Below, one piece after another: positions 1-14,622 of a DNA stretch of 62,477 nucleotides; position 1 is the stretch's first letter; every line of letters begins with the position of its first letter. The notes below the pieces were generated by a model that worked only from the letters and a program-made list of their open reading frames with translations, had not been told where the DNA came from and ran no database searches. This stretch comes from an uncultured Oscillospiraceae bacterium (GTDB lineage: Bacteria; Bacillota; Clostridia; Oscillospirales; Ruminococcaceae), in contig CAJTSP010000002.1 of NCBI GenBank assembly GCA_910578965.1, positions 1 through 62,477 of the forward strand. The letters run 5' to 3'. Both the position numbers and the translations under genes were made by a program.

Positions 1-296
1 CTATAGATCTTTTTACATATTCCCCTTTGCTCCAAAATGCTTGCGGCCTTTTCATTTATCTCTACGGCAGAAATGTCTTGTAATTCCGGCATCAAATATT
101 TTATTGCCACAAGATTCAGCCCAATGTTCGACCCAAGCTCCATAACGCTTCCAATTTTATCACACGCAGAAATAATCTTAGAAAACAGATTTATGTTCCC
201 GCTGACCAATGCCTTATTTGCCTCGGAATTCCTGTCCACATAATCATCCCCAAACTTCCCGTGCCAAAAGCTCTCCTGTTCTGTTTTATACGTCAT
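1..296 (-). CDS. class I SAM-dependent methyltransferase, N-terminal ~98 aa only (resembles the methylase family seen in pseudaminic-acid clusters); 3' end lies beyond the window start
   Basis: Not in the ORF track because it is truncated. Manual minus-strand translation from the ATG at 294-296 gives MTYKTEQESFWHGKFGDDYVDRNSEANKALVSGNINLFSKIISACDKIGSVMELGSNIGLNLVAIKYL... It has an FWxGxFGxxYxxRN N-terminus and an ELGSNIG glycine-rich SAM motif. The start overlaps the stop of the upstream aminotransferase by 11 nt. GC is visibly lower than the neighbours. Confidence 0.6.
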   Translation of the reverse strand, partial: MTYKTEQESFWHGKFGDDYVDRNSEANKALVSGNINLFSKIISACDKIGSVMELGSNIGLNLVAIKYLMPELQDISAVEINEKAASILEQRGICKKIY

Positions 297-1509
297 TTTG
301 CCTACGCTCCTGTTCTTTCTGATAATATTTGATTACGCGCTTAACCGCGTGGATCACATCTTTTACGTCCTGGTCGGTCATCTTTGGGTAAAGCGGGATG
401 CTCATAATGCCCTTGTATACTTCCTCCGCCTGGGGGCACAGTCCCCTTTGGTATCCGAGATGCTGATAATACGGGAACCAGTACACCGGCACATAATGGA
501 TCTGGCATTGCACATTTTCGGCGCTCATGGCATCAAAAAACTCCCTGCGCGTGCAGGCCAGCTTACCCAGGTCCAGGCGGATAATGTACAGGTGCCGGCA
601 GGTATCGGATTGCGAAATTTCCTTTTGCACAATGAGTTCCGGAATCTTTGAAAACGCCTCGTCATACGCCTTGACAATCTCTTTCCTTCGGGCCGCAAAA
701 CGATCCAGCTTTTTCATTTGGCTCGCAATCAGGGCCGCCTGAAAATCGGTAAGCCGGTAGTTGTAGCCCAGCATCACCTGCTCATAGTACCAGGGGCCTT
801 CGTGCGGCGCGCCTTCCATGTCCGCTTGGTCATGCGTAATGCCATGCGTGCGCACCAGCATCAGCTTTTTATAGTATTCTTCGCTGTTGGTGGTAATTGC
901 GCCGCCCTCGCCGCCGGTAATCGTTTTAACCGGGTGGAAGCTGAAGCAGGTCATATCCGCCAGGCTGCCGATAGGTTTCCCGTCATAGCGGGTTGCAATG
1001 GCATGGGCGGCATCCTCAATAAAGACCAGATGGTATTGCTCGCAGATTTCCCGGATTTCTCTATGCTTTACTGCCTGTCCGGTAAAATCCACTGCGACAA
1101 CGGCTTTTGTTTTAGGGGTAATGCAGGCCCGGATGCTTTCAGGGTCAATATTATAGGTATGGGGGTCAATATCTGCAAATACCGGCCTTGCGCCGCAGTA
1201 CAGCGCACAGTTGGCGCTGGCAGCAAAGGTCAGGGGGGTGGTAATCACCTCGTCGCCCGGGCCAATGCCTGCCGCCATGCAGGCACAGTGCAGCGCCGCC
1301 GTCCCATTGCTTACGGCTACCGCAAACCTTGCGCCGGTATACCCTGCCAGCTCCTGCTCAAATTCATCCACCTTGGGCCCGCAGGTAATAAAATCGCTGC
1401 GTAGCACCTCCGCCGCCGCCTGTATGTCGTCCTCGTCAATCCATTGTCGGCCGTAAAATATCTTGCTGTTCCGTACCGGATACCCGCCTTTAATCGCCAG
1501 CTTTTCCAT
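286..1509 (-). CDS. DegT/DnrJ/EryC1/StrS-family PLP-dependent sugar aminotransferase (PseC-like 4-aminotransferase)
   Basis: ORF 286..1527. Motifs: YGRQWIDEDDIQAAAEVLRSDFITCGPKV, AVSNGTAALH, and FSFHPVK containing the PLP lysine. The GGAGG inside the first codons favours the internal ATG at 1509 (MEKLAIKGG...). Confidence 0.9.
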   Translation of the reverse strand: MEKLAIKGGYPVRNSKIFYGRQWIDEDDIQAAAEVLRSDFITCGPKVDEFEQELAGYTGARFAVAVSNGTAALHCACMAAGIGPGDEVITTPLTFAASANCALYCGARPVFADIDPHTYNIDPESIRACITPKTKAVVAVDFTGQAVKHREIREICEQYHLVFIEDAAHAIATRYDGKPIGSLADMTCFSFHPVKTITGGEGGAITTNSEEYYKKLMLVRTHGITHDQADMEGAPHEGPWYYEQVMLGYNYRLTDFQAALIASQMKKLDRFAARRKEIVKAYDEAFSKIPELIVQKEISQSDTCRHLYIIRLDLGKLACTRREFFDAMSAENVQCQIHYVPVYWFPYYQHLGYQRGLCPQAEEVYKGIMSIPLYPKMTDQDVKDVIHAVKRVIKYYQKEQERRQNDV

Positions 1510-1544
1510 TTGCAAAGCGCCTCCCATCCTGTTTTTGCCGCGGC

Positions 1545-2603
1545 CTACCGCCGCCCCTGCTCGTTGACCAAATACCCGTGCATGTCAATCTCCGAGAGGA
1601 CTTCTTTTTTTTGCGGCAATTGTTTTGCTATCGTTTCCAGCCGGTTTTCGTCCATATCGAGCCTGTCCACCTTTGCATATGCGGCAATCAGGTCCAACGG
1701 GCTGACGCCAAATTTCCCTGCACAGCGGTGGACGGCCTGTAAATAACTTGAATGGAAGCCCGCCAGCCCGCACACGGTGTCTATGGGGTCTGTAATGCCG
1801 GAGCCGACAAACCGGGCGACATATTTTTTCCCCAGCAGGAGCAGCTCGCTGACATCCACATCCTCCTTGCCTCTCATTTTCTGGGAAACCGCAATGAGGT
1901 GCTCTGTTACCGTGTTGCCCGCACTGCGCCCCAGCCCCTGCAGGGATGCGTCGATCAGAGAAAAGCCTATCTCAGCGGCGTACAGACTGTTGGACAGCGC
2001 AAGCCCCAAGTTATTATGCCCATGATACCCCAAAGGCAAGGCAGACACGGCCCGGATCTCCTCATAATACCGCAGGATGTCCGCCGGCAGCATGCTGCCG
2101 GCGGAATCCACAAGGTACACGGCGTCTGCACCGTAGCTTTCCGACTTTTTTACCTGCTGCGCAAACTGCGCCGGTTCCATCACATAGGATTTCATGTAAT
2201 TTGCCATAACCATAACGCCCATCTTTTTGCACAGGCGGATGTACGGCTCGGATTTTTCTATCGCGTCCACATTGGTTCCCACGCGCACAAAATCCAGCCC
2301 GGCCGCACACAGGCGTTCCACCTGCTCCAGGCTTGCCACGCCCGGCACGCAAAACATCCCAACCTTTGCTTTGCAAACGGTTTCCTTTGCAGCCTGCAGG
2401 TATTCCATATCCGTATGCAGCGCGGCGCCATAGCGTGGGCCGCTGGCCCCAATCCCCATGCCGTGCCCGATCTCAATATAGGGGATGCCCAGGCGGTCCA
2501 GGCCGCCGCCAATACACTGCACATCCGTATTGGAAAATTGGAAATTGATCTTATAGCTGCCGTCCCGCAGCGTTACATCCATAATTTGAAAATCATTCAT
2601 CAT
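1545..2603 (-). CDS. HMGL-like / DmpG-type (4-hydroxy-2-oxovalerate aldolase-like) pyruvate aldolase
   Basis: N-terminus IMDVTLRDGSY, typical of the pyruvate carboxyltransferase/HMGL TIM barrel. Also HGHNNLGLALSNSL and 352 aa, the DmpG size. Its start overlaps the upstream stop by 11 nt. Confidence 0.8.
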   Translation of the reverse strand: MMNDFQIMDVTLRDGSYKINFQFSNTDVQCIGGGLDRLGIPYIEIGHGMGIGASGPRYGAALHTDMEYLQAAKETVCKAKVGMFCVPGVASLEQVERLCAAGLDFVRVGTNVDAIEKSEPYIRLCKKMGVMVMANYMKSYVMEPAQFAQQVKKSESYGADAVYLVDSAGSMLPADILRYYEEIRAVSALPLGYHGHNNLGLALSNSLYAAEIGFSLIDASLQGLGRSAGNTVTEHLIAVSQKMRGKEDVDVSELLLLGKKYVARFVGSGITDPIDTVCGLAGFHSSYLQAVHRCAGKFGVSPLDLIAAYAKVDRLDMDENRLETIAKQLPQKKEVLSEIDMHGYLVNEQGRR

Positions 2604-3372
2604 CTTCCTCCCGCGTTAAAAAACGGGGCCTTGCTTTCAGGGTTTCGGTAATCAGCTCCAGGTAAGCCGCTGCGGGGAAAGACACGATCTCCCCGCGCCC
2701 CAGCGGCGCAGCGCCAAAAAACGGCTGCCGGCGCACAAGCTTGTCCAGGCGGGTAAAGCAGGGGCCGTCCTGCGGGCGGTCGGTATCGTACACATAATGC
2801 ACGGCATAATCGCGCACCCTTTGCCCGCCCGAGACATACACGCCGTTAAACGCCTTGTTGTACCGGTAAGAAACCTTGTTTTGATGCTCGGCATAATGCA
2901 CGAAGGTAGAGCCGCAATCAAAATTAAAGCAGGCGATCCGGCCGTTTTTAGAGAGGAACTTTTCCCAGAAGCTGCCCGCCCCAAATGCTTCGTGGCTCCA
3001 GCTTTTGGTATAAAAGGCAGCGTTTTCCCCCTCCGCCACCACCGAAAAATTGGGGTCGCCGGAGCGCAGCGCCGCGGGCCTTGCCCGCAGGCCTTCCGGA
3101 AGCATGCCGCACTGCGAAGGCGTTGCGTCCGGGTCAAAAACCGTCCCATGGCAAAAGGAATAGGTAAACGACGGCGCAATCAGGGTCCCTTTGGGCCCAA
3201 CCACCGTTAAAACCGCTTTAATAAAAAGGCTGCACAGCTCCTGCGGGCTGCGAGCCCCCTCCAAACGGCCAAAAAAGCCGAGATTGGAGTGGATAAACAC
3301 ATCCTCACCCGCGCACAGGCCGGCCCCGCGCAACGCCGCCAACAGCTCGTCATAGGTATATACTGCGGCCAT
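2593..3372 (-). CDS. AAC(3)-family (Antibiotic_NAT fold) N-acyltransferase
   Basis: 259 aa. Family-typical N-terminus (LLAALRGAGLCAGEDVFIHSNLGFFG) and FTYSFCHG...FDCGSTFVHYAEH layout. Confidence 0.75.
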   Translation of the reverse strand: MAAVYTYDELLAALRGAGLCAGEDVFIHSNLGFFGRLEGARSPQELCSLFIKAVLTVVGPKGTLIAPSFTYSFCHGTVFDPDATPSQCGMLPEGLRARPAALRSGDPNFSVVAEGENAAFYTKSWSHEAFGAGSFWEKFLSKNGRIACFNFDCGSTFVHYAEHQNKVSYRYNKAFNGVYVSGGQRVRDYAVHYVYDTDRPQDGPCFTRLDKLVRRQPFFGAAPLGRGEIVSFPAAAYLELITETLKARPRFLTREEDDE

Positions 3373-3375
3373 CCC

Positions 3376-3636
3376 CTACTCCCCCTGCCTGCCGGCACAG
3401 ATTTCTGCCAGGCCGTTGATGGTTGCAAAAGAGCGGTCCTCAAAGGCATCGCTCGGAAAGGCAACCTGATGCGTTTCCTCCAGCGCCTCAACCAGTTCGA
3501 TAAAGCCAAATGAGTCAAGGTATCCGAGGTCAAAATAATTTTCGTCTGCATGCGCCTCAATTTCCGCCGGGGTGCGGCCCGTCTGCCCGCAAAACCATTC
3601 AATCAGCCACTTTTTTATCTTCTCTTTATAATTCAT
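3376..3636 (-). CDS. acyl/aminoacyl carrier protein (DltC-like small carrier)
   Basis: ORF 3376..3654. LGYLDSFGFIELVEALEE carries the phosphopantetheine-Ser DSF motif. An AAGGAGG lies upstream of the internal ATG at 3636. 86 aa. Confidence 0.8.
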   Translation of the reverse strand: MNYKEKIKKWLIEWFCGQTGRTPAEIEAHADENYFDLGYLDSFGFIELVEALEETHQVAFPSDAFEDRSFATINGLAEICAGRQGE

Positions 3637-4288
3637 GCGAAAGCCTCCTTGCAATTACACGGCACGGGGAGCCGTCGCTCCCCTTCAGCTTTAAGGGCAG
3701 CGCAACGATCTCATAATTGCCGCCGTCCTCCAACTGCTCCGTATTGTTCAGATATTCCACAATAACAACCTGCTTGCCCAGCAGCAGCTTATGGCCCAAG
3801 GAATCCTCTTTTTTTCCGATGGCAGAGGCCGTATCAGGAGACGGCGTGTCAATGGCAAGCATCTCCAGGCCGTTGTCTGTAAGGTACCGCAGGGTCTCCA
3901 GCTCAAAATACGGATAATCCTGATAATAACGGGGAGTTTTCCAGTTGCGGTACCAGCCAAACTTGAACAGCATTTTAGGGGCCACGGCAATTCCCTCCAA
4001 GTCCCCCGGGCAAACGCAGCCACCCGGCGGGATATGGCTCAAATCCGTTACCCGGATGCTGCCGCACAGCTTTTCCAGCGGGATTTCATCCACCCCATAG
4101 GTCCCGTTATAAAAATGCAGCGGCGCGTCCAGATGCGTGGCCGAATGGCTGCCCAGGGTAATGACGGACGTGTTGCGGCCAACCTCCTCCAGCCTGCCCA
4201 GGCGGGCAATGGACGGCGCCGCATGCCAGGCGGTACCGCAGGTCATACAGGTGTTGTCAATCGTCAGCGTTAAATCAATCCAGCTCAT
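3626..4288 (-). CDS. putative cyclase family protein (kynurenine-formamidase-like metal hydrolase)
   Basis: HSATHLDAPLHF matches the HxGTHxDxPxH-type motif of PF04199-like proteins. GGAGGA RBS lies before the ATG at 4288. Confidence 0.8.
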   Translation of the reverse strand: MSWIDLTLTIDNTCMTCGTAWHAAPSIARLGRLEEVGRNTSVITLGSHSATHLDAPLHFYNGTYGVDEIPLEKLCGSIRVTDLSHIPPGGCVCPGDLEGIAVAPKMLFKFGWYRNWKTPRYYQDYPYFELETLRYLTDNGLEMLAIDTPSPDTASAIGKKEDSLGHKLLLGKQVVIVEYLNNTEQLEDGGNYEIVALPLKLKGSDGSPCRVIARRLSHEL

Positions 4289-4391
4289 TTTTCCTCCGCC
4301 CTTCTAACAATGCCTTGGCAACCAGCGCCAGGGCGCCCCACATATGCGGTGGCTGCATAAAAGCAAGGCCGCCAATCCCCAGCGCCCTTTT

Positions 4392-5036
4392 TTACTGCAT
4401 ACCGCCGGCCGGCACGGGCCTGCCGACCGAAATGATCTCAGCGATATCGCCATATCCGCTCGCGGCAAACGATATGCGCAGCGCTTTGCCGTTCACGGAC
4501 AGGTCATCGGCCCCGCTCACGGCAAAGCCCTGCTGCAAAAGCTTTTTTTGCAGATCGGCATGGTGGGTCACAATAAACGCCAGCGCCACCGGGCCCTCCT
4601 GGTCCAGCCATGCCTTTTGCCCGCCGCGTCCCTCCAGCAGGCGTATTTTTACGGGCATCCTGTCCAGAGGGCCCTTGCCCGCCAGCAGGGCCGGGTCATC
4701 CTCTGCCGGGCAAAGGCCAAAGTTTTGCCAAAACGCGGCGCTGCCTGCGGCATCCTGAGTAGGTATCCAGATTTCCGCCTCATCCTGGCGGACCGAGAGC
4801 CCCGACAGGCCGCGGCAGGCGTCATATACAACCACCTCAAGCGGGTAGCCCGCCGGGCTGTCCAGCTTAATCAGCTCATGGCTTGCATGCGGCCTTTGAA
4901 ACAGGGGCTGCTTTGCCGCAATATTGGGCAGCCCCTCCTCCGAAAAACGCACGCTGTACCCGCAAAGCCGCTCAAGCGTTTGCCGGCGCTTTTCTGCCGG
5001 GGTTGCAAGCGTGATATGGTCCAGCATAAGGATCAT
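4392..5036 (-). CDS. VOC/glyoxalase-like family protein (weak call)
   Basis: ORF 4392..5054. The MILMLDHITLA N-terminus is typical of VOC-fold proteins. The internal ATG at 5036 forms an ATGA overlap with the ligase stop. Confidence 0.45.
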   Translation of the reverse strand: MILMLDHITLATPAEKRRQTLERLCGYSVRFSEEGLPNIAAKQPLFQRPHASHELIKLDSPAGYPLEVVVYDACRGLSGLSVRQDEAEIWIPTQDAAGSAAFWQNFGLCPAEDDPALLAGKGPLDRMPVKIRLLEGRGGQKAWLDQEGPVALAFIVTHHADLQKKLLQQGFAVSGADDLSVNGKALRISFAASGYGDIAEIISVGRPVPAGGMQ

Positions 5037-6472
5037 GGATGCGTCATCTCCCATTCCTGCCTCAGCCTTGGCTTATCAATTTTCCCGTTGAGGTTCCTGG
5101 GCAGCTCGGGCAGGTTTACCAGCGCATCCAGCCTATATTTACGGCCTAACCGCTGTTCTATGGCGGCGTTTAACGCGCTGCGCTCCAGCCCCGCCGTCTC
5201 GGCGCCCGCAGTCCAGCATACAATTTGCTCATCGCCCCGCCTTGACACGCCAAGCACAACGCACTGCGCAATGCCAAACACGCTTTGCAGGCATTGTTCG
5301 ATATCGTTGGGGTTGATATTGAGGCCCCCCTTGATAATCAGGTCCTTTTTCCGCCCGCAGACGATTAGCTGCTCCGGGGTCCCGTCGATCAGGTCCCCGG
5401 TGTCGTACCATTCCGGCGGGCGGCAAAGCGGCCTGCCACCATTCCAGTACCCCAAAAACATCCACGGCACCCGGAAGCTGGCCTCGCCGTCCGGCAGGCG
5501 CTTCATTTCCACGCCGTTCAAAAGCCGCCCCACCGAATGGTCCCTTGCGGGGCCGGCCGCACACTGGCTGGTCAAAAACAGTGTTTCCGAAAGGCCGTAG
5601 CTCTGGTACAGCCGTATTCCATAGGCCTGTTCAAAATCCTCTCGAAGCCGCGCGTCCAGCGGCGCGGTCCCAACGCTAAAGGTAATTTTGCGGCCCGCAA
5701 GCGCGTCCCGCCCGCTCCTCTGCCGGTCTACGGTAAGGAGCATCCGCAGCATCGCGGGCGCCATCCAAAAGCAGTTTACCCGGTACTCCGCAACCCTTTT
5801 CCAAAAGGGTACTGCCTCCATCACCGAAAACCGGCGTCCCAATACAATGCGGCAGCCAAACAGGAACGGGAGGAAAATCGTATTCAGGATACCGGCCATA
5901 TAGGTCATGGGCATAGCGTGATAGAAGATATCCCCCTGCGCATAGCCAAGCAGCTCCCCAAAGGACAGCGCGCTCGCAATGAGGCTGCGCAAGGAATGCA
6001 CCACCCCCTTGGGCAGGCCCGTACTGCCGGAGGTATAGGTAATGAGATAGGGTTTTTCAAAATCCGTCTGCGCAAACAGCTCCTCCAGCGGCCGGCCGGC
6101 CGGCTTGCCGGGCTGCGCCGCCTGCTGCAGCGCTTTTTTGAGTGCGCAATCCGGCTCGGCGCCCACCAGCTCGGCGTCAGGATGGCAGGCGCGGATCCGT
6201 TCGATCTCCGCAGGGCTCTTTTGCGGGTCCAACGGGATAATCTCCTTGTTTTCCATCGCGCAGGCAAAATACAGCATGCAGAGGGCCGGCGAATTTTCCA
6301 TACAGGCCATGAGCTGGCGCGCCCGCACCGCCCTAACCTGCTCCGCCATTGCCTGCACCCCGCCAAAAAAGTCCTGGTAGGTATAAACAAAGCCATCCTC
6401 CGCCCGGATCAGAAACGGCCCGTCCGCCGCAAGGGAGCGCATATGCCGCTGCCAATACTCTTTTTCTGTCAT
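5033..6472 (-). CDS. AMP-dependent synthetase/ligase (adenylate-forming acyl- or aminoacyl-carrier ligase)
   Basis: YTSGSTGLPKGV (A3 core), YGLSET, GDLID...GRKKDLIIKGG (A8 region). 479 aa. 4-nt overlap with the upstream gene. Confidence 0.9.
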   Translation of the reverse strand: MTEKEYWQRHMRSLAADGPFLIRAEDGFVYTYQDFFGGVQAMAEQVRAVRARQLMACMENSPALCMLYFACAMENKEIIPLDPQKSPAEIERIRACHPDAELVGAEPDCALKKALQQAAQPGKPAGRPLEELFAQTDFEKPYLITYTSGSTGLPKGVVHSLRSLIASALSFGELLGYAQGDIFYHAMPMTYMAGILNTIFLPFLFGCRIVLGRRFSVMEAVPFWKRVAEYRVNCFWMAPAMLRMLLTVDRQRSGRDALAGRKITFSVGTAPLDARLREDFEQAYGIRLYQSYGLSETLFLTSQCAAGPARDHSVGRLLNGVEMKRLPDGEASFRVPWMFLGYWNGGRPLCRPPEWYDTGDLIDGTPEQLIVCGRKKDLIIKGGLNINPNDIEQCLQSVFGIAQCVVLGVSRRGDEQIVCWTAGAETAGLERSALNAAIEQRLGRKYRLDALVNLPELPRNLNGKIDKPRLRQEWEMTHP

Positions 6473-7776
6473 TGGCCCTTACCCCGCCCTTCGCAGATTT
6501 CCAGCAGCCCGGCTTCTGTCAGCCTGTCCACCAAGGGGATCAGGGTTTCCAGCGGCGCGTGGATCGTATCGCTGATGGCAATCAGGTCCATGCTCCCGTC
6601 TGCATAAGCAATCAGGTTCATCATGTCCCGCACCGCATCCGCCGACCCCTTATAGCTTTCCGTCGGGTACAGGCCCCTTTTCCCAAGCTGCGGCTCGCAC
6701 AGGCAGCTTACCCGATAATACCGATTATATTCCAGCCCGCGCAGGCATTTCCGGTAAACGTCCAGCGCCCCCTGAAGCCCCTCGGGCGAAATCAGGGACA
6801 GGTCGTCCGCCGAGGTATGATATTCGGGATACTCACCAAACTTGCTGCGGCAGATGGAGCAAACCGGCAGGTCCACGCCGGGCGCGTTGTACTGCCGCTC
6901 ATCCGACCCTCGCTTTAGGTAGGAGTAGGTGACGTACCCCGGCGCATGGGTGCGCAGTACGTTCCGGGCTACCCGGTCCGCCAGGGTATCCCCCTTGCGG
7001 GATTCGATATAACTGTATGCACGGTTATCGCCCACACAGGATAGGTTAAACCCGGCGGCCACCGCCCGTTTCAGATGTTCCAGGTTGCGGCTGATATAAA
7101 CGATGGAGCCAAGCGTCTCCGGTACAAATACAAACCGGTAGGCATATCTCCTCACCGGCTGCTTTTCCAGCCAGCAGGCCAGCGCCGCAGCGACACACGG
7201 CCCGGAGAGCTCGTTGTTTGCCATGGACGGATGGCAGATATAGGTGGAAAGCAATATTTCCTGCCCCGCGCCGCCCAAAACCGTCGCCGGCAGGAGGTAT
7301 TCGCCATAGGTAAGAAAACCGGGCTCGAGCGTACTGTCGATATACATACGGTACTGCCCTGCGCGCAGGCCGTCCCGCTGCCTTTTGCTCATGCAAAACC
7401 CAAAGCGGCGCTTATAATAGGACGTCACATACGGGATAACGTCCGGCTGATCCTCCTGCACATAGATGTGCCGTTTCAGCTCCTCAAGGCCAACAATCTG
7501 GTCCACCGGCTCGGAATATCCCATAATGTGCAGGTTATGGTCCTTGAAAGAAACCACCCGCTTGCCCTGCCCGTCTGCAATAAACCCATCCCGGATATTC
7601 CACTCGTCCGGCACCGTCCAATCGAACGCGCGGGTTCCGCTGGGCACCTCATAGATTTGCATATTGGGCATAGTTTCCTGTAAAATTTTCAGCGTTTCAC
7701 GCACCCCGTTGCCTGTAAGGCTGCGGCATATGGGAAACAGCCGCTGTGCCAGCCGGTACATTTCCTTGCCTTCCAT
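6469..7776 (-). CDS. DUF4910/DUF2172-type aminopeptidase-like (M28-fold) protein
   Basis: N-terminus MYRLAQRLFPICRSLTGNGVRETLKIL and the 435-aa size match my recollection of the aminopeptidase-like family that co-occurs with AAC(3)-like genes in glycan loci. GGGAGGGGG RBS. Confidence 0.6.
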   Translation of the reverse strand: MEGKEMYRLAQRLFPICRSLTGNGVRETLKILQETMPNMQIYEVPSGTRAFDWTVPDEWNIRDGFIADGQGKRVVSFKDHNLHIMGYSEPVDQIVGLEELKRHIYVQEDQPDVIPYVTSYYKRRFGFCMSKRQRDGLRAGQYRMYIDSTLEPGFLTYGEYLLPATVLGGAGQEILLSTYICHPSMANNELSGPCVAAALACWLEKQPVRRYAYRFVFVPETLGSIVYISRNLEHLKRAVAAGFNLSCVGDNRAYSYIESRKGDTLADRVARNVLRTHAPGYVTYSYLKRGSDERQYNAPGVDLPVCSICRSKFGEYPEYHTSADDLSLISPEGLQGALDVYRKCLRGLEYNRYYRVSCLCEPQLGKRGLYPTESYKGSADAVRDMMNLIAYADGSMDLIAISDTIHAPLETLIPLVDRLTEAGLLEICEGRGKGQ

Positions 7777-7801: not shown

Positions 7802-9466
7802 TCACCGCAGCAGCCCCTGTGCCGTCAAAATGCTACGGATTTCCCGCTCGCCCCTGCGAAACCTCCATGGGGGGACATAATGCTCTTGGGCCTTCATCTT
7901 GTCATGCCGGCGCTTTATAAGCTTATCCTCGTCGTACAGGTACCGGTGCAGCTCTGCATACAGCAAAAGGGTCTGTCTTTTTATGGCGGCTGCCTCCTGC
8001 CGGCGGGCGGCGTTTTGTTCCTGCCGTTCTTTGCGCCAATCGCCTGTTTCCGCCCGCAGGCCAAGAAGCTCGCCCCGCAGGGCGGCGCAGCGCGCAGGGT
8101 CCTTTTTCAGCAGTGCCGCCATGTATTGTATCTGCCGCTTTCCCCTGCGCAGCCTATGGCGCAGCCGGCGCGGCGCTATGTAGCGCAGCCACCCCCAAAA
8201 ACGGTATCGAAGCCAGTAACGCAGCGGGTTTAACACATGGTTCTGCCAGATATGCTTGCGGAGCATATTGCCTATACGCCAGATCCCGCCCTTATAGTAC
8301 AGCAGATGCGGCGGCACTTCCCAAATTGGGCTGCTGAAGCTGTTATCCTGCAAGGTGTCCTCCAAAAAATCACACACCCGCAGATAGGCGTGCCTGTCTG
8401 CGACATCGTAAAAGGAATTCAGCAGGGCCAGGTCCATCCCATAGCGCTTTTGCACGTCGGGGTCCTGCGCATGGCACAGGGTATACGCAAACTGCTCGTA
8501 GGTTTCAACAAAGCCTGTCCCGGTAAAGATCGGCATCTGGCAGCCATGGGGCATGGGGACCGGCCGCAGCACAAAGGTAGGGGTACCGCTGTATAAAGAT
8601 TCTACTGCCGTTGTGCTGTTCCAGTTATAGACCACATCGCAGGCGCGCAGCCAATGCTTGATAGACTCCTGCGGCAGTACAAAAAAGCCCCGCAGCTCCT
8701 TTTGCATTTCCGCCAGCGCCGGATTCGCCATCTCGGAGGGGTGCGGCCTGTAAATGATCTGGACGGATTCGCCCCCCGGCTCGGACAGGACCCGCTTCGC
8801 CCAGGCCAAAAACATTTGCTGGCTGTCCTCGCTGGCCTGGCGGAACGCGTCGGCAGCAGAATCGCTCATCAAAGGGCTGCGGCTGTTCAGCCTGGGCATA
8901 TTGACAAACACAAAGGAGGATATAAACAGCGCCGTTTTCTTGGCCGGGTCCAACCCATATTTTTCAAACAGCGTTTTCCTCGGGATAAAAAAGCCCCGAA
9001 ATTCCGGCCTGTAAAAATCCAGCGTGACATAGCCCGCCACACAAATATTTTGGGGTTCCACGCCCACTATGTCCGTAAGGCGTGTACAATTTGCCCCCCC
9101 CCAGGCTACATATCGTACGTGGTGCTGCAACACCCCGGAGGCATTCCACTCCGCCTGCGCCCATTGCTCGGCAGATTCGCTTTCCAGCGTGCTGTTCAAA
9201 GGTATCTGTTCCCATTGCAGGTTGACAACCTTTTCAAACGAGCCGACAAAACCCGTAAAGGTCCTGTACACGGTATCCTTATAGCAGGTGGCAATTGCCG
9301 CCACGCGGGTTTTATACCGCGGGTACAGCAAATGGGTGTAGCTGTGCCAAAAGCTCTGATAGGCAACCCGATAGCCGCGGCGCTTTAATTCCGCTCCCAG
9401 CAGGCACAGGTTATCGTATTCCCTGTTTTTCACGTCGTACACAAACAAAAAATCTACTTCCCGCAA
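7802..9466 (-). CDS. surface-carbohydrate biosynthesis protein, GT-B-like (paralog A), with basic coiled-coil C-terminal tail
   Basis: 554 aa, TTG start with GGGAGGCGGG RBS. The N-terminal ~420 aa is collinear with ORF 9579..11225 (DFLFVYDVKNREYDNLCLLGAELKRRGY vs DFLFIYEVKARELENVCLLACELERRGY). The tail is rich in R/K/E/Q heptad-like sequence. Confidence 0.6.
   Translation of the reverse strand: MREVDFLFVYDVKNREYDNLCLLGAELKRRGYRVAYQSFWHSYTHLLYPRYKTRVAAIATCYKDTVYRTFTGFVGSFEKVVNLQWEQIPLNSTLESESAEQWAQAEWNASGVLQHHVRYVAWGGANCTRLTDIVGVEPQNICVAGYVTLDFYRPEFRGFFIPRKTLFEKYGLDPAKKTALFISSFVFVNMPRLNSRSPLMSDSAADAFRQASEDSQQMFLAWAKRVLSEPGGESVQIIYRPHPSEMANPALAEMQKELRGFFVLPQESIKHWLRACDVVYNWNSTTAVESLYSGTPTFVLRPVPMPHGCQMPIFTGTGFVETYEQFAYTLCHAQDPDVQKRYGMDLALLNSFYDVADRHAYLRVCDFLEDTLQDNSFSSPIWEVPPHLLYYKGGIWRIGNMLRKHIWQNHVLNPLRYWLRYRFWGWLRYIAPRRLRHRLRRGKRQIQYMAALLKKDPARCAALRGELLGLRAETGDWRKERQEQNAARRQEAAAIKRQTLLLYAELHRYLYDEDKLIKRRHDKMKAQEHYVPPWRFRRGEREIRSILTAQGLLR
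9094..9102 (-). repeat. homopolymeric G9 (C9 on the plus strand) tract inside CDS 7802..9466
   Basis: The plus strand reads ttgcccccccccagg. On the coding strand TGG GGG GGG GCA encodes WGGA. The paralog has only G6 at the equivalent WGEA position (about 10870). Confidence 0.9.
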
Positions 9467-9578: not shown

Positions 9579-11225
9579 TCAAGTGGCTTCCAAGCACTCC
9601 CGCAGGCGGCTTTTTATCCGCCGGATCTCACGCTGCGACGCGCGATTCAGCCGGTATTTGGAAGCGTCGTACCTTCGTTTCTGCGCCGTATCCCGGTTTT
9701 GCTTTTCGCGGCGCAGCTCGCTGAGCAAACGCTGCTGCATCTGATCAACCTCTGCCTTATCGGCCTGCCAGCGCCTGTTCTCTTCCTGTAGCCTCTGCCC
9801 AAGCTGTTCGTGCTGCCACGCTGCCGCCCGACAGCGTTTTTCCCCTTTTTCACTGCGCCGCAGCCAGCGCCCCACAGGCGTATGCAGGATTGCCAGGCGG
9901 CCTACCCAACTGCCAAAGCGCCAAAAAACAGAATAGGCTTTATATAAGGCCCCGGGCATGCCTTTCGGCCTTGGCGGCCGGGCGGCGCGCAGCCAGACGA
10001 TGGGCCAGTAGCACACACGGTAACGCAGCGTATGCACAAAACGATTTTTCCAGGGGTAGACAACCCGGTACTCCAGCCACATCCGCAGGTATGGTACGTC
10101 GGTATAGGGCGCCGCCGCCGGGCTTTTATAGGCGGGGTCGGCATGGGTTTCCTCCAGCCACCCGCAGATGTTTTGGTAAACGGGCGTTTCGCCGGTATCC
10201 GCATACCACGCGCGCAGGGCCTGCGGCCGGGCTGTGCCCGCCTTTTTTTCACTACCGGCAGCAGAGGCCCGAAAATCCTCGTAGCGGCAGACGGCCGCAC
10301 AACCGGAAAAGATCGGCATATCGCAGGCCTCCGGTAATGCCACCGGCCGCAGCAGGAAGGTGGGCGTACCGCTCTGCCAGGCTTCCGCAGCCGTTGTGCT
10401 GTTCCAGATATACACACGGTCGCAGGCACAGATCCAATGCTTAACGGCCGGCTGCGCAATGCAGAAGAAGCGGGGGATGCGCCGCGCCATCGCCCGGAGC
10501 GCCGGGTTTTCCGCCTCGCTCGGATGCGGGCGGTAGATAAACTGCAGCCCCGGCTCCTCGCAAAGCAGCCGCTCGATCCACTCCAGCACAATCTGCTGCG
10601 TTTGGGCCGAAACGAGCTTTGTCATCTCCTTCCCGTCCTCGTCTGCAACCGCTTCCAGCTTGGGCGGCAGCTTTACATAGGCAAAGGAGGATATGAACAG
10701 GCAGGTTTTTTTGCCGGCGTCCAGCCCTTCCCTTTCAAACAGGCGGCGGCGTGAAACCAGCATCGGGCGGAACATGGGCCGGTAAAAATCCAGCGTGATA
10801 TACCCGGTCACGCGGGTACAGTCCGGCGCTACCCCAAAGCTCTCCACAAGGCGTTTCTGCCCGGCTTCCCCCCAGCAGACATTCCGCACCTGCTTGGCCG
10901 GCCCCTGGTAGGTCCAGGAGGTTACCTGCCGGGAGCGGTAGGAGTAATTGACCGGCACCTGCTCCCACTGGAGGCAGAAAACCTTTTCGTAATGCGCCGC
11001 AAAGCCGGTAAAGAAGCGATAAACCTCCTCGTTATAACAGGCGGACACCACCAGCGTCGTGCAGGAATAGGCAGGCCTGCTCCGCTTTTTCAGCATGGCC
11101 CAGCTATTCAGGATCGCAGTGGAGTAGCCGCGGCGCTCCAGCTCACAGGCCAGCAGGCAGACATTTTCCAGCTCCCGCGCCTTTACCTCATATATAAACA
11201 GGAAATCCACCTTTTGCGGATGCAC
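9579..11225 (-). CDS. surface-carbohydrate biosynthesis protein, GT-B-like (paralog B), with coiled-coil C-terminal tail
   Basis: 548 aa, GTG start with AGGAGGTGG RBS. Paralogous to 7802..9466. C-terminal tail: QHEQLGQRLQEENRRWQADKAEVDQMQQRLLSELRREKQNR. Confidence 0.6.
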   Translation of the reverse strand: MHPQKVDFLFIYEVKARELENVCLLACELERRGYSTAILNSWAMLKKRSRPAYSCTTLVVSACYNEEVYRFFTGFAAHYEKVFCLQWEQVPVNYSYRSRQVTSWTYQGPAKQVRNVCWGEAGQKRLVESFGVAPDCTRVTGYITLDFYRPMFRPMLVSRRRLFEREGLDAGKKTCLFISSFAYVKLPPKLEAVADEDGKEMTKLVSAQTQQIVLEWIERLLCEEPGLQFIYRPHPSEAENPALRAMARRIPRFFCIAQPAVKHWICACDRVYIWNSTTAAEAWQSGTPTFLLRPVALPEACDMPIFSGCAAVCRYEDFRASAAGSEKKAGTARPQALRAWYADTGETPVYQNICGWLEETHADPAYKSPAAAPYTDVPYLRMWLEYRVVYPWKNRFVHTLRYRVCYWPIVWLRAARPPRPKGMPGALYKAYSVFWRFGSWVGRLAILHTPVGRWLRRSEKGEKRCRAAAWQHEQLGQRLQEENRRWQADKAEVDQMQQRLLSELRREKQNRDTAQKRRYDASKYRLNRASQREIRRIKSRLRECLEAT

Positions 11226-11253: not shown

Positions 11254-12648
11254 TTACCGTTTTTTCCGCGCCCGGTATGCCGCCCGGAGCCGGGCGTATG
11301 TTTTTGGCATACAGGCCTTGGCTGCGGAGGCCAGCAGCCCCCTGAGGCCGCCGTACAGCCTTCTGGCGGCCGTCCTTGCCTTGCGGAGGATCACCCGGGC
11401 GGCCTCCTGCGCCATGTAACAGCCTTTTATCCGGTAAAATCCCAGCGATACGGCAAGCGGGCCGCCCGGGCCGGGCCCCGCGCGCTGCCCCACAAGGGCC
11501 CTTAGGTCGCATAAGACCTCTTCCACAAATTTTTCGTAGCTGTATTTCCCGGAGGCTACCACATGTTCATAGCACTGTTCCGCGATTTTTTCACAATAGG
11601 CAGGATCCCGCTCTACCAGATCCATTACCTCGTCCAAATTGGAAAAGTCCTTTTTGATCGGGATATAATCCACATTTGGCTCCAAAACGCCAAAATAATC
11701 GCCCTCCACCAACAACTGGCAGGTATGCGTCATGGCGCATTCAAACACGCGAGGGCCCAATATCCTTGTTTGGATCACGCCTTCCCCGCCCTGGTAGCAG
11801 GCCTGTGCAATTTCCTCCCGCGATGCGCCGGGATGAGCGCGCACATACGCCAGCGTGCGGGCGCGTATCTCCCCATCCGGGTCGAGGATGCTGGAGCCGC
11901 CCAGGCACCCCAGGGCCGCCCGGCAGCGGAGCAGGAAATCAAACCAGGCGCTGCCCGTAATGGTATTGCGGAAGCTGTCCATATAGGTGAGCTTCACATC
12001 CTCCTTGAGGTGCGGATGCTGTGGCAGCCGGGCCCGGAAAGCATTGGCCAGATCGGTTTTTAGCTGGCCGTGGAAGCCAAAGATATAGTTGGCGCTGCCG
12101 GCGCGGTACCCCACGTCAATATCCTTGCGGGGGGATTTTGCCCGCCTTTTTTCCACCCACCTCAGGGTGGCAGGGTCGATGTATCCGGTAAACACCGGAT
12201 GGCACAGGTTTTTTTGCCCCGTCTCCCCCGCAGGAAAGATGACGTCGCAATCGGGCGGGAAGCAACTGGAATATACCCGCTGTACGCCGCAGTCGCGGAT
12301 AAGCGTCCAAAGGGAGCGGGTGTATACGTATTCGTCGTGCGGGATGATTACCTTGACCCCCTGCAGCCCTTGCAGCACCGGCTTGATTCGTTTGTACATC
12401 GCCCAAAAGGACGGCTGGTCAAAGCGCAGCGCAAGGAAGGTATAGTGGAAAATCACCGCGTCAAACGGGATATTGGCCAGGCCCGCCGGTAGCCTGCCCG
12501 TATTTTTGCAGTTGAAGTAGTAGAAGCGGTTCCCCTTGCCGTATCGCCGGAACGAAAACAGATGGTTGTCGTGGGTGCGCACAACGCTGCGCCGGGGCTT
12601 CCAGCAGAGAACCAGGATATTCATCGCCTGCTCATAATGCGGATTCAA
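11254..12648 (-). CDS. glycosyltransferase, CgeB/Glyco_trans_1_2-like C-terminal domain (paralog 1)
   Basis: Collinear with ORF 15840..17150 (FDAVIFHYTFLALRFD, IDVGYRA, LGCLGGSSILDPDGE, FECAMTHTCQLLVEGDY...VDYIPIKKDFSNL). The start is ambiguous: TTG at 12648, or ATG at 12624 (MNILVLCW). Confidence 0.6.
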   Translation of the reverse strand: MNPHYEQAMNILVLCWKPRRSVVRTHDNHLFSFRRYGKGNRFYYFNCKNTGRLPAGLANIPFDAVIFHYTFLALRFDQPSFWAMYKRIKPVLQGLQGVKVIIPHDEYVYTRSLWTLIRDCGVQRVYSSCFPPDCDVIFPAGETGQKNLCHPVFTGYIDPATLRWVEKRRAKSPRKDIDVGYRAGSANYIFGFHGQLKTDLANAFRARLPQHPHLKEDVKLTYMDSFRNTITGSAWFDFLLRCRAALGCLGGSSILDPDGEIRARTLAYVRAHPGASREEIAQACYQGGEGVIQTRILGPRVFECAMTHTCQLLVEGDYFGVLEPNVDYIPIKKDFSNLDEVMDLVERDPAYCEKIAEQCYEHVVASGKYSYEKFVEEVLCDLRALVGQRAGPGPGGPLAVSLGFYRIKGCYMAQEAARVILRKARTAARRLYGGLRGLLASAAKACMPKTYARLRAAYRARKKR

Positions 12649-13417
12649 ACGATCCCCTCAGCTTTCTAAACAGCCGCAGCCCCATCAGCCAGAACAGGCA
12701 GATCCATAGCAGCAGGATCAGCACTCCAAGCAGGTCTGCGTTTTTTTGGTAATACAGGCTGCAGCGGTAAATCTGCACGATCTGATAAAAAGGGTTCAGT
12801 ACAACCAGCGGCTGAAGGAACACGGGGAGCCTCTCGGGGTAATATAGGATCGGCGTAAAGAACATCGTGGTCATCAGCAGCACGCTAAGCACCTGTACAA
12901 TGTCGCGCACAAATACCACAACGGCGCTGACACACAGCCCGATCCCCATAATGAGCAAAAAGGTCAGCGGCACGGCCAGCAGCAGCCACAAAACGTAAAA
13001 GGAAACGCCCAGCCCCGTGGCAACCAGCAGCACGGCGGAAAACACCAGCACAACGCAGATCGACGGAAGCCCCATCATCGAGGCAGCTATCGGGAAATAG
13101 TGCGATTTCACATCAAAGTTTTTCAAAATGGCCCTGTTTGCAACAAGGCTGTTTGCAGAGGACATGATCCCCTCGCTGATAGCCTGCCACGGCCCGTAAC
13201 CGCAGATCAGCCACAGCACGTGCTCCAAAGGGTCCGCGCCGCTGCCGGCAAAAACGAACCCAAACGCAAAGATATACACCCCCATTTGCAGCATGGGGCT
13301 CAGCACTACCCAGGCCCGGCCAATCCGGGTACCGGTAAAGCGCGTGCGGTAGTTCAGCTTCCACAAATTCAAAATCTGTGCCAGCTCCCGCTGCGCAATC
13401 GCTTTCAAACCACTCAT
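12632..13417 (-). CDS. ABC-2 type polysaccharide/teichoic-acid export permease (Wzm/TagG-like)
   Basis: 261 aa with about six hydrophobic segments. ATGA overlap with the upstream ATPase gene. Sits in a glycan-locus context. Confidence 0.85.
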   Translation of the reverse strand: MSGLKAIAQRELAQILNLWKLNYRTRFTGTRIGRAWVVLSPMLQMGVYIFAFGFVFAGSGADPLEHVLWLICGYGPWQAISEGIMSSANSLVANRAILKNFDVKSHYFPIAASMMGLPSICVVLVFSAVLLVATGLGVSFYVLWLLLAVPLTFLLIMGIGLCVSAVVVFVRDIVQVLSVLLMTTMFFTPILYYPERLPVFLQPLVVLNPFYQIVQIYRCSLYYQKNADLLGVLILLLWICLFWLMGLRLFRKLRGSFESAL

Positions 13418-14622
13418 ATGCTTTCCTCTCTGTGCAGCTTTTTCAGCTTAGCGCGGTTATGGTAATACACCTGCGGGCAATCCAGGTAATTGTAATATTG
13501 GTCGTTTACCACCCGGAACAGCGCCGCCCGCTTGGCAAGAAGCACGCCCTTTTGGCGGGCCGCAAGGCTTATCTGATAAGCGCCTGTATTAAAGTTGCAG
13601 TCCTCTATGCGGGTTTCCAGCATTGCGGTGCGTCCCGGCTCCAGTACCAGCCATTGCCCGGTGCTTTCGTGATAGCTGCTTGCAAACAGCAGATACCCCC
13701 GGAGGCTGTAGCAGCTTATCTGCAGGTCGACCTGGTCCAGCGGGGCCTCAGATTGGATTTCCGCTTTCACCCGGATTGCCTGATGGATGCGGATTTCCGC
13801 GCCGGGCTCCCCGTCTTCCCGCAAAACCTGCAGCAGGCCGATACGGACCCGCTCGCCGAAGACGCTGTTTTCGGTTGCTTTTTCCATCTGTGCCAGCATC
13901 TGGCTTTCCTGCTCTTTTTTAACGGAAAGCTCAAACGCCTCGGTCACCCTTGCAGAAGGCCCGTCCATGCGGATACGCCCCTTATCCAGCCAGATGCATC
14001 GGTCCGTGTACTTCCGAATCGTGGACATGGAATGCGACACCATCAGCAGGATTTTCCCCTTCTCGCACAGCTCGCGTGTTTTTGCCTCCGATTTTGCCTT
14101 GAACGCTGCATCCCCCACGCCCAGCACCTCGTCGATCACAAGGATCTCCGGCATCGTAAACAGGATGCAGGCAAAGGACACCTTGGCGATCATGCCGGAG
14201 GAATAAATCTTCATCGGCTGGTCGATGTACTCGCCCAGATCGACAAAATCGATTACCTCCTGGACCCTCCCTGCCAATTCGCTTTCCGGGATACCGGAAA
14301 GGCGGCCGGCCGTCCGGATATTTTCGCGGCCGGTTTCCTCCTGGTTAATGCTGCTGCCTATTTCCATAACCGGCGTTACCTTTCCAGTAACGGCCAACTC
14401 ACCCTCCGTGGCATGGCTGTACCCCGAGAGGATGTTGAGCAGGGTGGATTTTCCCGCGCCGTTGCGCCCGATAATGCCGACACGCTCCCCCTCTTCTATC
14501 CGAAAGCTAATATCCTTGAGGGCCCAGAAATCCGCGCTGCCTTCCTCCTGCCTCCCGAGCCTTAAATACTCTATCGGCGAGGCAAAATAGCGCTTGGAAA
14601 GCCCCCTGCACTCTATATACAT
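13414..14622 (-). CDS. polysaccharide ABC exporter ATP-binding protein (Wzt/TagH-like) with C-terminal beta-rich extension, copy 1
   Basis: Walker A GRNGAGKST, signature YSSGMIAKVSFA, Walker B ILVIDEVL, followed by ~160 extra C-terminal aa. The ATG at 14622 is preceded by AAGGTGGAG (the track ORF extends to 14634). Confidence 0.85.
   Translation of the reverse strand: MYIECRGLSKRYFASPIEYLRLGRQEEGSADFWALKDISFRIEEGERVGIIGRNGAGKSTLLNILSGYSHATEGELAVTGKVTPVMEIGSSINQEETGRENIRTAGRLSGIPESELAGRVQEVIDFVDLGEYIDQPMKIYSSGMIAKVSFACILFTMPEILVIDEVLGVGDAAFKAKSEAKTRELCEKGKILLMVSHSMSTIRKYTDRCIWLDKGRIRMDGPSARVTEAFELSVKKEQESQMLAQMEKATENSVFGERVRIGLLQVLREDGEPGAEIRIHQAIRVKAEIQSEAPLDQVDLQISCYSLRGYLLFASSYHESTGQWLVLEPGRTAMLETRIEDCNFNTGAYQISLAARQKGVLLAKRAALFRVVNDQYYNYLDCPQVYYHNRAKLKKLHREESI

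Follow-up and report, generated by a model that had tools for sequence, protein, structure and literature searches.

The 62,477-nucleotide stretch of contig CAJTSP010000002.1 from an uncultured Oscillospiraceae bacterium (the window) carries at positions 286-7776 eight intact, co-directional open reading frames (ORFs) on the minus strand. Seven of these, at 1545-7776, form a conserved, portable cassette encoding a DUF4910 protein, an adenylate-forming ligase, a VOC-like protein, a cyclase-family protein, an acyl carrier protein (ACP), an AAC(3)-like protein and a DmpG-like aldolase. [quoted passage not shown] On balance the evidence speaks, with some reserve, for a cassette that tailors a nonulosonic acid (NulO), here pseudaminic acid, by ACP-dependent N-acylation through an acyl swap. 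The eighth gene, for PseC, lies outside the cassette, because the block occurs without an adjacent PseC gene and also beside legionaminic-acid-like clusters, and the initial annotation, which counted PseC into the unit, is corrected on this point. Its broader proposal of a carrier-dependent acylation cassette inside a surface-glycan operon making a Pse-type sugar stands: the logic of ligase, ACP and AAC(3)-like protein fits their adjacency across about 20 loci, and the gene-neighborhood comparison suggested at the time finds the ligase, carrier, AAC(3)-like, DUF4910 and aldolase genes co-conserved there.

The loci (given here as L numbers) were collected by neighborhood look-ups, a scan of species-representative genomes (AAC(3) alignment, 18 loci) and tblastn mapping. 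About 20 loci, from Lachnospiraceae, Oscillospiraceae, Acetatifactor, Flavonifractor and other Clostridia, contain the genes for DUF4910, ligase, VOC, cyclase, ACP, AAC(3)-like protein and aldolase as a block, usually in the order just listed. All seven genes, with AAC(3) identities of 44-84%, are present in L007, L010, L011, L013, L014, L019-L023, L029, L031 and L032, L031 being the full cassette of the cultured Anaerosporobacter mobilis DSM 15930, where PseB, PseC, PseH, PseG, PseI and PseF are encoded as well. The PseC gene is directly downstream of the cassette in the window, L007, L013 and L032, and is not adjacent in L010, L011, L014, L019-L023 and L031. Pse genes lie beside the block in L007, L013, L014, L016, L017, L020, L027, L031 and L032, a legionaminic-acid-like set in L011, and flagellin and Maf genes in L010. 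The L019 block has just a GT52 sialyltransferase-like gene with it and lies among housekeeping genes. In Acetatifactor metagenome-assembled genomes (MAGs) (L019 3323-6862; also L021 and L023) the cassette forms an island with GT52 and GT2 genes, away from a NulO synthase gene and flanked by holB, pyruvate kinase and other housekeeping genes.

The composition of the block varies in a regular way. The cyclase and aldolase genes are found together in 17 loci, are both absent in 3 and are never separated; the VOC gene is absent from L016 and L025, with no room left for it, and split in L027. Only DUF4910-ligase-ACP-AAC(3) is kept in L024 and L026, and in L018, a Melainabacteria MAG, DUF4910-ACP-AAC(3) has as its neighbors an FkbH_N protein, another ACP, an MBOAT protein and a methyltransferase. 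DUF4910 accompanies ACP and AAC(3) in almost every locus, reduced variants included. Since L024, L026 and L018 keep these three genes while cyclase and aldolase co-vary, the cassette divides into a core of DUF4910, ACP and AAC(3)-like protein and an exchangeable acid-supply part, which consists of ligase, aldolase and cyclase (with or without VOC), of ligase alone, or of FkbH and methyltransferase. The acid-building unit of aldolase, cyclase and VOC envisaged in the initial annotation finds its counterpart here, as aldolase and cyclase, with or without VOC, vary together as a sub-module for acid supply. Neither FkbH nor HAD is encoded in 286-7776, and the FkbH version is seen only in L018. Some cassettes contain or adjoin extra tailoring genes encoding a MaoC dehydratase, a class I methyltransferase or a radical SAM/SPASM protein (L013 5645-6037 and 9317-9976; L031 5061-6092; L010 5038-5718; L024 10815-11501); the class I methyltransferase gene of L013 sits between the ACP and AAC(3) genes, and the radical SAM/SPASM protein is that of Anaerosporobacter mobilis. 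These additions imply several related acyl products.

The window DUF4910 protein matches DUF4910, DUF2172 and HTH_47 (Pfam, E 1e-100) and aligns over residues 3-380 with the same-length Clostridium acetobutylicum protein CA_C2195 (PDB 3k9t, E 7e-101). The motifs CHPSMANNE, PET and YHTS are kept across 17 loci with both His residues conserved, and the cassette-linked proteins read CHPSMANNE(L/C)SG (window residues 181-192) where CA_C2195 has CNDNLSG. By analogy with its relatives described below, DUF4910 is proposed to be an N-deacetylase that would free an amine for re-acylation. The carrier (PP-binding, PF00550, E 3e-10) is a stand-alone protein of the ACP or peptidyl carrier protein type with 86 amino acids, and its serine motif (D/N)SF is found in 19/19 aligned sequences, as DSF in 18 and as NSF in L018. 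Its earlier designation as DltC-like is too loose, the score against the DltC model being 26 bits for a cutoff of 68, and the AmcB model likewise lies far below its cutoff. In nearly all loci the AAC(3)-like gene directly follows the carrier gene. The AAC(3)-like protein belongs to Antibiotic_NAT (PF02522, Pfam, E 2.7e-28) and matches AAC(3) enzymes and FrbF in the PDB with E of 1e-10 to 5e-8. It reaches 68 bits against a cutoff of 270 for the NCBIfam AAC_3 equivalog NF033082, with all subfamily models far below cutoff, and so, judged by its profile matches, shares only fold and domain with the AAC(3) aminoglycoside-resistance acetyltransferases. Its relatives make up 191 homologue clusters, with 43-84% identity among those listed and with the motifs conserved. 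It is proposed to acylate the amine of the sugar with the acyl-S-carrier as donor.

In each of the nine loci with a NulO synthase that were checked (9/9), and likewise in L032, a gene for a distinct GNAT, LbH (hexapeptide) or formyl transferase is present. An acyl swap is favored because these loci have such transferases of their own and because DUF4910 travels with ACP-AAC(3) in nearly every locus; on the same grounds the PseC-made 4-amine, named initially as the target, is probably not simply the acceptor. In the proposed scheme the core sugar enzymes (an FnlA/PseB-like dehydratase and PseC, joined as in sister strains by a PseH-like GNAT, PseG, PseI and PseF) would make a di-N-acylated Pse precursor, from which the DUF4910 Zn enzyme would strip one N-acetyl group, most likely, by analogy with Cj1295 of Campylobacter jejuni, the one derived from N-acetylglucosamine (GlcNAc; N5 of Pse). 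In parallel the DmpG-like aldolase would build a short pyruvate-derived 4-hydroxy-2-oxo acid, and the cyclase-family enzyme, together with the VOC protein where present, would hydrolyse, cyclise or isomerise this product. The ligase would adenylate the acid and load it onto the 86-residue carrier, and the AAC(3)-fold enzyme would acylate the freed amine with the phosphopantetheine thioester as donor. The modified sugar, activated with cytidine monophosphate (CMP), would be used by two TIGR04396 proteins, and a Wzm/Wzt-type transporter would export the glycan. The stage of acylation may be the uridine diphosphate (UDP)-hexose, the free NulO or the CMP-NulO.

In some loci the pseudaminic acid synthase itself carries an additional transferase domain: NeuB plus SAF is fused to a C-terminal GNAT in L014 (14359-15855) and L020 (1059-2564) and to a formyltransferase domain in L017 (5817-7448), which suggests coupling of the N-acylation and condensation steps. 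About half of the cassette loci also have sugar-N-formyltransferase-like genes next to their Pse or Leg genes, at times besides a GNAT (L007 15515-16135; L011 4670-5578; L016 4484-5251; L027 13504-14091), with only two amines available.

The proteins of the acid-supply part are assigned to families with differing ease. The ligase is an AMP-binding enzyme (Pfam, E 1.7e-42) with FadD13, malonyl-CoA ligase, MenE and benzoate-CoA ligase as its nearest solved structures, and its TSGSTGxPKG motif and C-terminal catalytic Lys are kept in all loci. The best 25 NCBIfam matches shown are all of the acyl-CoA-ligase type with no DltA model among them, and the enzyme is proposed from these similarities to load the acid onto the carrier protein. 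The 214-amino acid VOC protein has itself no Pfam or NCBIfam match. A profile search collects 485 representative clusters, 17/85 relatives match PF00903, and the AlphaFold2 (AF2) model built from the 85-sequence alignment (predicted local distance difference test score, pLDDT, 95.9) matches glyoxalase-family structures with a Foldseek probability of 1.0 at an identity of no more than 15%. By this model the protein is a divergent member of the VOC (glyoxalase/bleomycin-resistance/dioxygenase) superfamily, with H7, K42, E67, F190 and E200 invariant; the fold agrees with the paired beta-alpha-beta-beta-beta modules of that superfamily, and H7, E67 and E200 with its His/Glu metal ligands. The family assignments of the initial annotation are accordingly reproduced by Pfam and NCBIfam for every protein except this one, for which the assignment is recovered only through the profile search and AF2/Foldseek. 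The VOC enzyme is proposed to be an optional tailoring part of the acid-supply sub-module, and in strict anaerobes an isomerase or epimerase activity is more likely for it than that of a dioxygenase. A glyoxalase-I-like role, in which it would load the carrier thiol from a 2-oxoaldehyde, is not favored because VOC is dispensable in L016 and L025 while the ligase is always present there.

The cyclase-family protein matches PF04199 (Pfam, E 4e-22) and kynurenine formamidases in the PDB (E 5e-17), and the HxxTHxDAPxH motif is invariant across the aligned loci. From these matches it is proposed to be a kynurenine-formamidase-like metal hydrolase or cyclase belonging to the acid supply. A role as a deformylase removing the formyl group installed by neighboring formyltransferases was rejected as its main one, since formyltransferase genes are absent from the full-cassette loci L013, L014, L020 and L031 and the cyclase co-varies with the aldolase and not with the formyltransferases.

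The aldolase, of the class II pyruvate type, matches HMGL-like (E 6e-33) and scores 288 bits for the PRK08195 subfamily, above the cutoff of 229, and 253 bits for the TIGR03217 equivalog, below the cutoff of 286. It resembles the DmpG/BphI 4-hydroxy-2-oxovalerate aldolases (E about 1e-49 for PDB 1nvm and 8ih7), with the TIM-barrel metal ligands (Asp and HxH) conserved. The active site differs in a reciprocal His/Tyr swap, DmpG having RDGSH and GVYSSF where the cassette aldolases have RDGSY and GFH(S/T)SY (residues 13-17 and 281-287; 16/16 aligned sequences, with one Phe to Leu change in L016). The first catalytic site is likewise Tyr in 3dxi, a structural-genomics aldolase from Bacteroides. 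No DmpF or acetaldehyde dehydrogenase gene is present in the operon, and the glycan context in strict anaerobes is unlike the aromatic meta-cleavage in which DmpG/BphI act. The aldolase is proposed to make the acid skeleton, the most economical guess being a short 4-hydroxy-2-oxo acid from pyruvate and an aldehyde; this guess is weakly grounded, and the cassette has no redox or amino-transfer enzyme.

The core of the module is already known from C. jejuni (Cj1295-Cj1297) and C. acetobutylicum (CA_C2195-2199), and the acid-making half is uncharacterised. Cj1295, a member of the same family as DUF4910, is needed for C. jejuni flagellin to carry Pse5(2,3-di-O-methylglyceroyl)7Ac, and cleavage of the N5 acetamido group was proposed for it (Hitchen et al. 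2010, PMC3068675); the adjoining Cj1296/7 is annotated as an aminoglycoside N3'-acetyltransferase (PMC3025981). C. jejuni NCTC 11168 is therefore like the window in having a DUF4910-family gene next to an AAC(3)-like gene, there directly after pseB and pseC, and genetic evidence connects its DUF4910 gene with an unusual N-acyl substituent of Pse (PMC3068675, PMC3025981). It is unlike the window in the donor, which here involves an AMP-ligase, aldolase, cyclase and VOC in place of a glycerate-type FkbH-like loader and O-methyltransferases, and in the glycan, an ABC-transporter-dependent polysaccharide here and not flagellin. ACP and FkbH-like genes are presumably present in the C. jejuni Cj1295 locus, and the L018 variant with FkbH and methyltransferase resembles the C. 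jejuni type. No biochemical follow-up on Cj1295 since 2010 was found in the searchable literature.

In C. acetobutylicum the neighborhood of CA_C2195 holds an ACP, aminosugar N-acetyltransferases, a glyoxalase, NeuB and a cytidylyltransferase, and DUF4910 was proposed to serve in sugar transacylation or deacylation (Das et al. 2014, PMC4000134). This CA_C2186-2199 set agrees with the cassette loci in these components, DUF4910 (3k9t) included, and is unlike the window in having an ATP-grasp ligase and an acetyltransferase-HAD fusion and no AMP-ligase/aldolase/cyclase block. The supplement of the same paper lists without comment an aldolase and AMP-ligase in Grimontia, a cyclase and AAC(3) in Vibrio coralliilyticus, and Nmar_0140 among the neighbors, entries that hint at Vibrionaceae and Thaumarchaeota (PMC4000134). 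The combination named initially as a candidate undescribed pathway is undescribed only in part: DUF4910, AAC(3)-like and ACP genes by Pse genes are documented (PMC3068675, PMC3025981, PMC4000134), and the aldolase, cyclase and AMP-ligase neighbors were listed in 2014 but never interpreted. The literature search returned no paper on the ligase/aldolase/cyclase/VOC version of the cassette. The Shewanella flagellin cluster sfmABCDE was considered as a counterpart and rejected, as the work on it cites Cj1295 but the genes are different.

More distant parallels exist for parts of the cassette. The DltA/DltC system likewise uses a stand-alone adenylating enzyme and a small carrier to donate a small acid to a glycan, and is unlike the cassette, which has no DltB (MBOAT) or DltD gene, a carrier below the DltC cutoff and an acyl-CoA-ligase-like ligase. 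Other carrier-dependent acylations of amino sugars are those of butirosin (BtrI/BtrH) and of the Vibrio cholerae O1 tetronate (RfbK-N); compared with butirosin, the cassette transferase has the AAC(3) fold and is not of the BtrH type. Set against the CMP-Pse pathway PseB-C-H-G-I-F, the window contributes PseC and L007 and L032-L035 contribute PseF, PseI and PseG; the seven cassette genes are extra, and the dehydratase of the window lies below the PseB and FnlA cutoffs.

Several observations weigh against the acyl-swap scheme. The canonical catalytic Asp and Glu of M28 enzymes are missing in DUF4910 (PMC4000134), and the Zn ligand Asp195 of CA_C2195 is replaced by Asn, followed by an invariant Glu, in the window protein (the DUF4910 proteins of L024 and L026 keep Asp at this site), so that hydrolase activity of DUF4910 is unproven. 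In a variant of C. jejuni 11168 the Cj1296/7 tract is out of frame while glyceroyl-Pse is still made (Table 1, PMC3068675), and the AAC(3)-like enzyme may for this reason not be an obligatory transferase in C. jejuni. In all cassette aldolases the catalytic His21 of DmpG is Tyr and Tyr291 is His, and with the catalytic His replaced the reaction may differ from that of DmpG. The cassette includes no reductase or aminotransferase, and the chemistry joining aldolase, cyclase and VOC into one acid is a guess. For PseH, PseG, PseI and PseF the sister strains are the sole source, the window being cut after PseC.

Among the other explanations, the AAC(3)-fold enzyme might replace PseH and acylate the PseC-made 4-amine (N7 of Pse), with no deacetylation taking place and DUF4910 otherwise employed. 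N7-acylated Pse derivatives do occur in nature, for example Pse5Am7Gra of Tannerella, the PseH-like GNAT of L007 falls below the PseH cutoff (52 compared with 93 bits), and the direct succession of cassette and PseC in the window, L007, L013 and L032 is what such an arrangement would give. It is nonetheless rather unlikely, since the cassette occurs without adjacent PseC in the nine loci given above (L010, L011, L014, L019-L023, L031), the loci showing a NulO synthase all have their own GNAT, LbH or formyl transferase, in some fused to PseI, and the constancy of DUF4910 with ACP and AAC(3) is unexplained if no amide is opened; the one characterised product tied to the DUF4910 family is moreover N5-acylated (PMC3068675). 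DUF4910 might alternatively be itself the transacylase, swapping acetyl for the carrier-borne acyl group within a single active site and leaving to the AAC(3)-like protein an editing function, a self-resistance-like acetylation or a second modification. This follows the transacylation proposed by Das et al. (PMC4000134) and would accommodate the Cj1295-dependent modification with Cj1296/7 out of frame (PMC3068675). The adjoining ACP and AAC(3)-like genes in nearly all loci are a classic donor-transferase signature, and enzymes with the AAC(3) fold are proven to acylate amines from a phosphopantetheine thioester, which makes this explanation improbable. No thioester-dependent acyltransferase is known for the M28 fold.

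Two further readings give the cassette, or its aldolase, another substrate. A modification of another glycan constituent, be it another amino sugar or an O-acylation, with only an indirect link to NulOs, would fit the DUF4910 genes found in CDP-sugar C-methyltransferase-type clusters without NulO genes (Das et al. 2014 supplement, PMC4000134) and the several loci that show no NulO synthase within 10 kb. We hold it to be very improbable, as Pse or Leg genes, a GT52 gene or flagellin/Maf genes are found in most loci whose flanks are long enough, and the only genetic datum for the DUF4910 family concerns a Pse derivative (PMC3068675). Least probable of all is that the DmpG-like aldolase has the sugar as its substrate and serves as a pyruvate-dependent synthase or lyase of nonulosonic acids, a role also entertained in the initial annotation (as ulosonic-acid synthase). 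In formal terms NulOs belong to the 4-hydroxy-2-oxo acids, on which DmpG-like aldolases act, and the cassette is sometimes away from NeuB genes (L019, L022). PseI/NeuB nevertheless accompanies the cassette in L007, L011, L013, L014, L016, L017, L020, L027, L031 and L032, and aldolase and cyclase are lost together in L018, L024 and L026 while the sugar genes and DUF4910-ACP-AAC(3) stay.

The arrangement of the genes in the window is given in Table 1. The tight coupling initially described for all eight genes holds for the intact ORFs and the overlaps; the VOC-cyclase junction, with its gap of 103 nucleotides, is the sole loose junction of 286-7776. The VOC ORF opens at 5054, and the start is placed at 5036, giving the ATGA overlap at 5033-5036, because the homologue profiles begin at the Met encoded there. 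The PseC gene possibly starts at 1509, and gene callers give a protein of 407 amino acids, which scores 478 bits for the TIGR03588 equivalog, above the cutoff of 423.5. The methylase start at 296 creates an overlap of 11 nucleotides with the PseC gene. A scan for promoters and terminators inside the cassette gave nothing above the shuffled background.

Table 1. Genes of the cassette and of the surrounding glycan operon (nt, nucleotides)
Feature	Positions	Strand	Remarks
DUF4910/DUF2172/HTH_47 protein	6469..7776	-	first gene in transcript order; M28-like, single-Zn site
Adenylate-forming ligase	5033..6472	-	4-nt ATGA overlap with DUF4910 gene at 6469-6472
VOC protein (putative), 214 amino acids	4392..5036	-	ATGA overlap with ligase gene at 5033-5036
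Cyclase-family protein	3626..4288	-	103-nt gap after VOC gene
Carrier protein, 86 amino acids from ATG	3376..3636	-	11-nt overlap with cyclase gene; LDSFGF motif
AAC(3)-like protein	2593..3372	-	3 nt after carrier gene
DmpG/HMGL-type aldolase	1545..2603	-	11-nt overlap with AAC(3)-like gene (8 nt if the second Met is the start)
PseC aminotransferase	286..1527	-	17-35-nt gap after aldolase gene, depending on the PseC start used
Pse-associated methylase, N-terminal fragment	1..296	-	TIGR03587, E 7e-25 on 98 amino acids; gene cut by the window edge
TIGR04396 "surface carbohydrate biosynthesis" paralogues	7802-9466 and 9579-11225	-	146 and 141 bits, cutoff 125
Wzm/Wzt-type ABC exporter	permease 12632-13417; ATPases 13414-14634 and 14613-15836	-	ABC2_membrane, ABC_tran, Wzt_C
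FnlA/CapE/PseB-family UDP-GlcNAc 4,6-dehydratase	20718-21764	-	Polysacc_synt_2, E 1e-100

Further genes of the operon lie upstream. By their family matches the two tandem TIGR04396 proteins are candidate transferases for the modified nonulosonic acid; the BFO_1060 family domain scores below its cutoff, and both have, in their 554 and 548 amino acids, long Arg/Lys/Gln-rich C-terminal tails without a family match. Two proteins of the same operon, at 11254-12648 and 15840-17150, have no Pfam or NCBIfam match, and the other upstream genes encode GT4 and GT2 glycosyltransferases and a DUF4422 protein. The dehydratase is of the FnlA/PseB family, as first annotated, and lies below both equivalog cutoffs, being closer to FnlA (457 bits, cutoff 730) than to PseB (297 bits, cutoff 408). 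FnlA- and PseB-type dehydratases yield the same 4-keto intermediate, and the window enzyme is predicted to supply the 4-keto sugar for PseC.

In sister strains the same operon continues as PseC - PseF - PseI - GNAT - PseG - Glf, followed by a recombinase, and it is from this continuation that the operon is considered to make a Pse-containing, ABC-exported polysaccharide. PseF, PseI and PseG of L007 are equivalogs above cutoff and the PseH-like GNAT scores 52 bits for a cutoff of 93; in L032-L035 PseF, PseI and PseG lie beside the cassette in the same layout. The window and the public contigs with an identical operon (L001-L006) end 150-340 nucleotides into the methylase gene after PseC, and L007 and L032-L035 have no Pse-associated methylase, PseC being directly followed by PseF. 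The contig end in the methylase gene suggests that the assembly broke at a repeat or that the junction varies between strains. An exact DNA search of metagenome contigs for sequence beyond the left end of the window gave no match. One helicase, in the same 90% cluster as a protein of Anaerotruncus sp. G3(2012), is the sole ground for regarding the organism as probably an Anaerotruncus-like member of the Oscillospiraceae from the rodent gut. The gene directly after the end of the glycan operon in the sister strains encodes a large serine recombinase (L032 19448-20645), which hints that the glycan locus, as a whole or in its 3' part, is mobile.

Immune recognition, phage binding and motility are shaped by the nonulosonic acids of flagellins, capsules and S-layers, and in inflammatory bowel disease the flagellins of Lachnospiraceae are prominent antigens. 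Nonulosonic acids owe their structural diversity mainly to their N-acyl groups, and the installation of acyl groups beyond acetyl, formyl and acetimidoyl is poorly understood. The cassette is an uncharacterised version of a known, poorly understood type of nonulosonic-acid tailoring module, for which a conserved core with exchangeable acid-supply parts is now defined, and its ligase/aldolase/cyclase/VOC version is widespread in gut Lachnospiraceae and Oscillospiraceae. More tentatively, and with doubt prevailing, the module in gut Clostridia may install on pseudaminic or legionaminic acid an undescribed N-acyl group derived from a pyruvate aldol and possibly cyclised; were this 4-hydroxy-2-oxopentanoyl, the Pse residue would have a calculated mass of about 388 Da compared with 316 Da. 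The cultured carrier Anaerosporobacter mobilis DSM 15930 makes the pathway directly testable, and the module could serve as a tool for new CMP-NulO analogues. Were such an aldol-derived acyl group installed by the module, DUF4910 would rank as the first N-deacetylase for nonulosonic acids, an acyl-carrier protein would be shown to serve the AAC(3) fold as donor, and glycan biosynthesis would be shown to employ a DmpG-type aldolase whose His/Tyr dyad is swapped.

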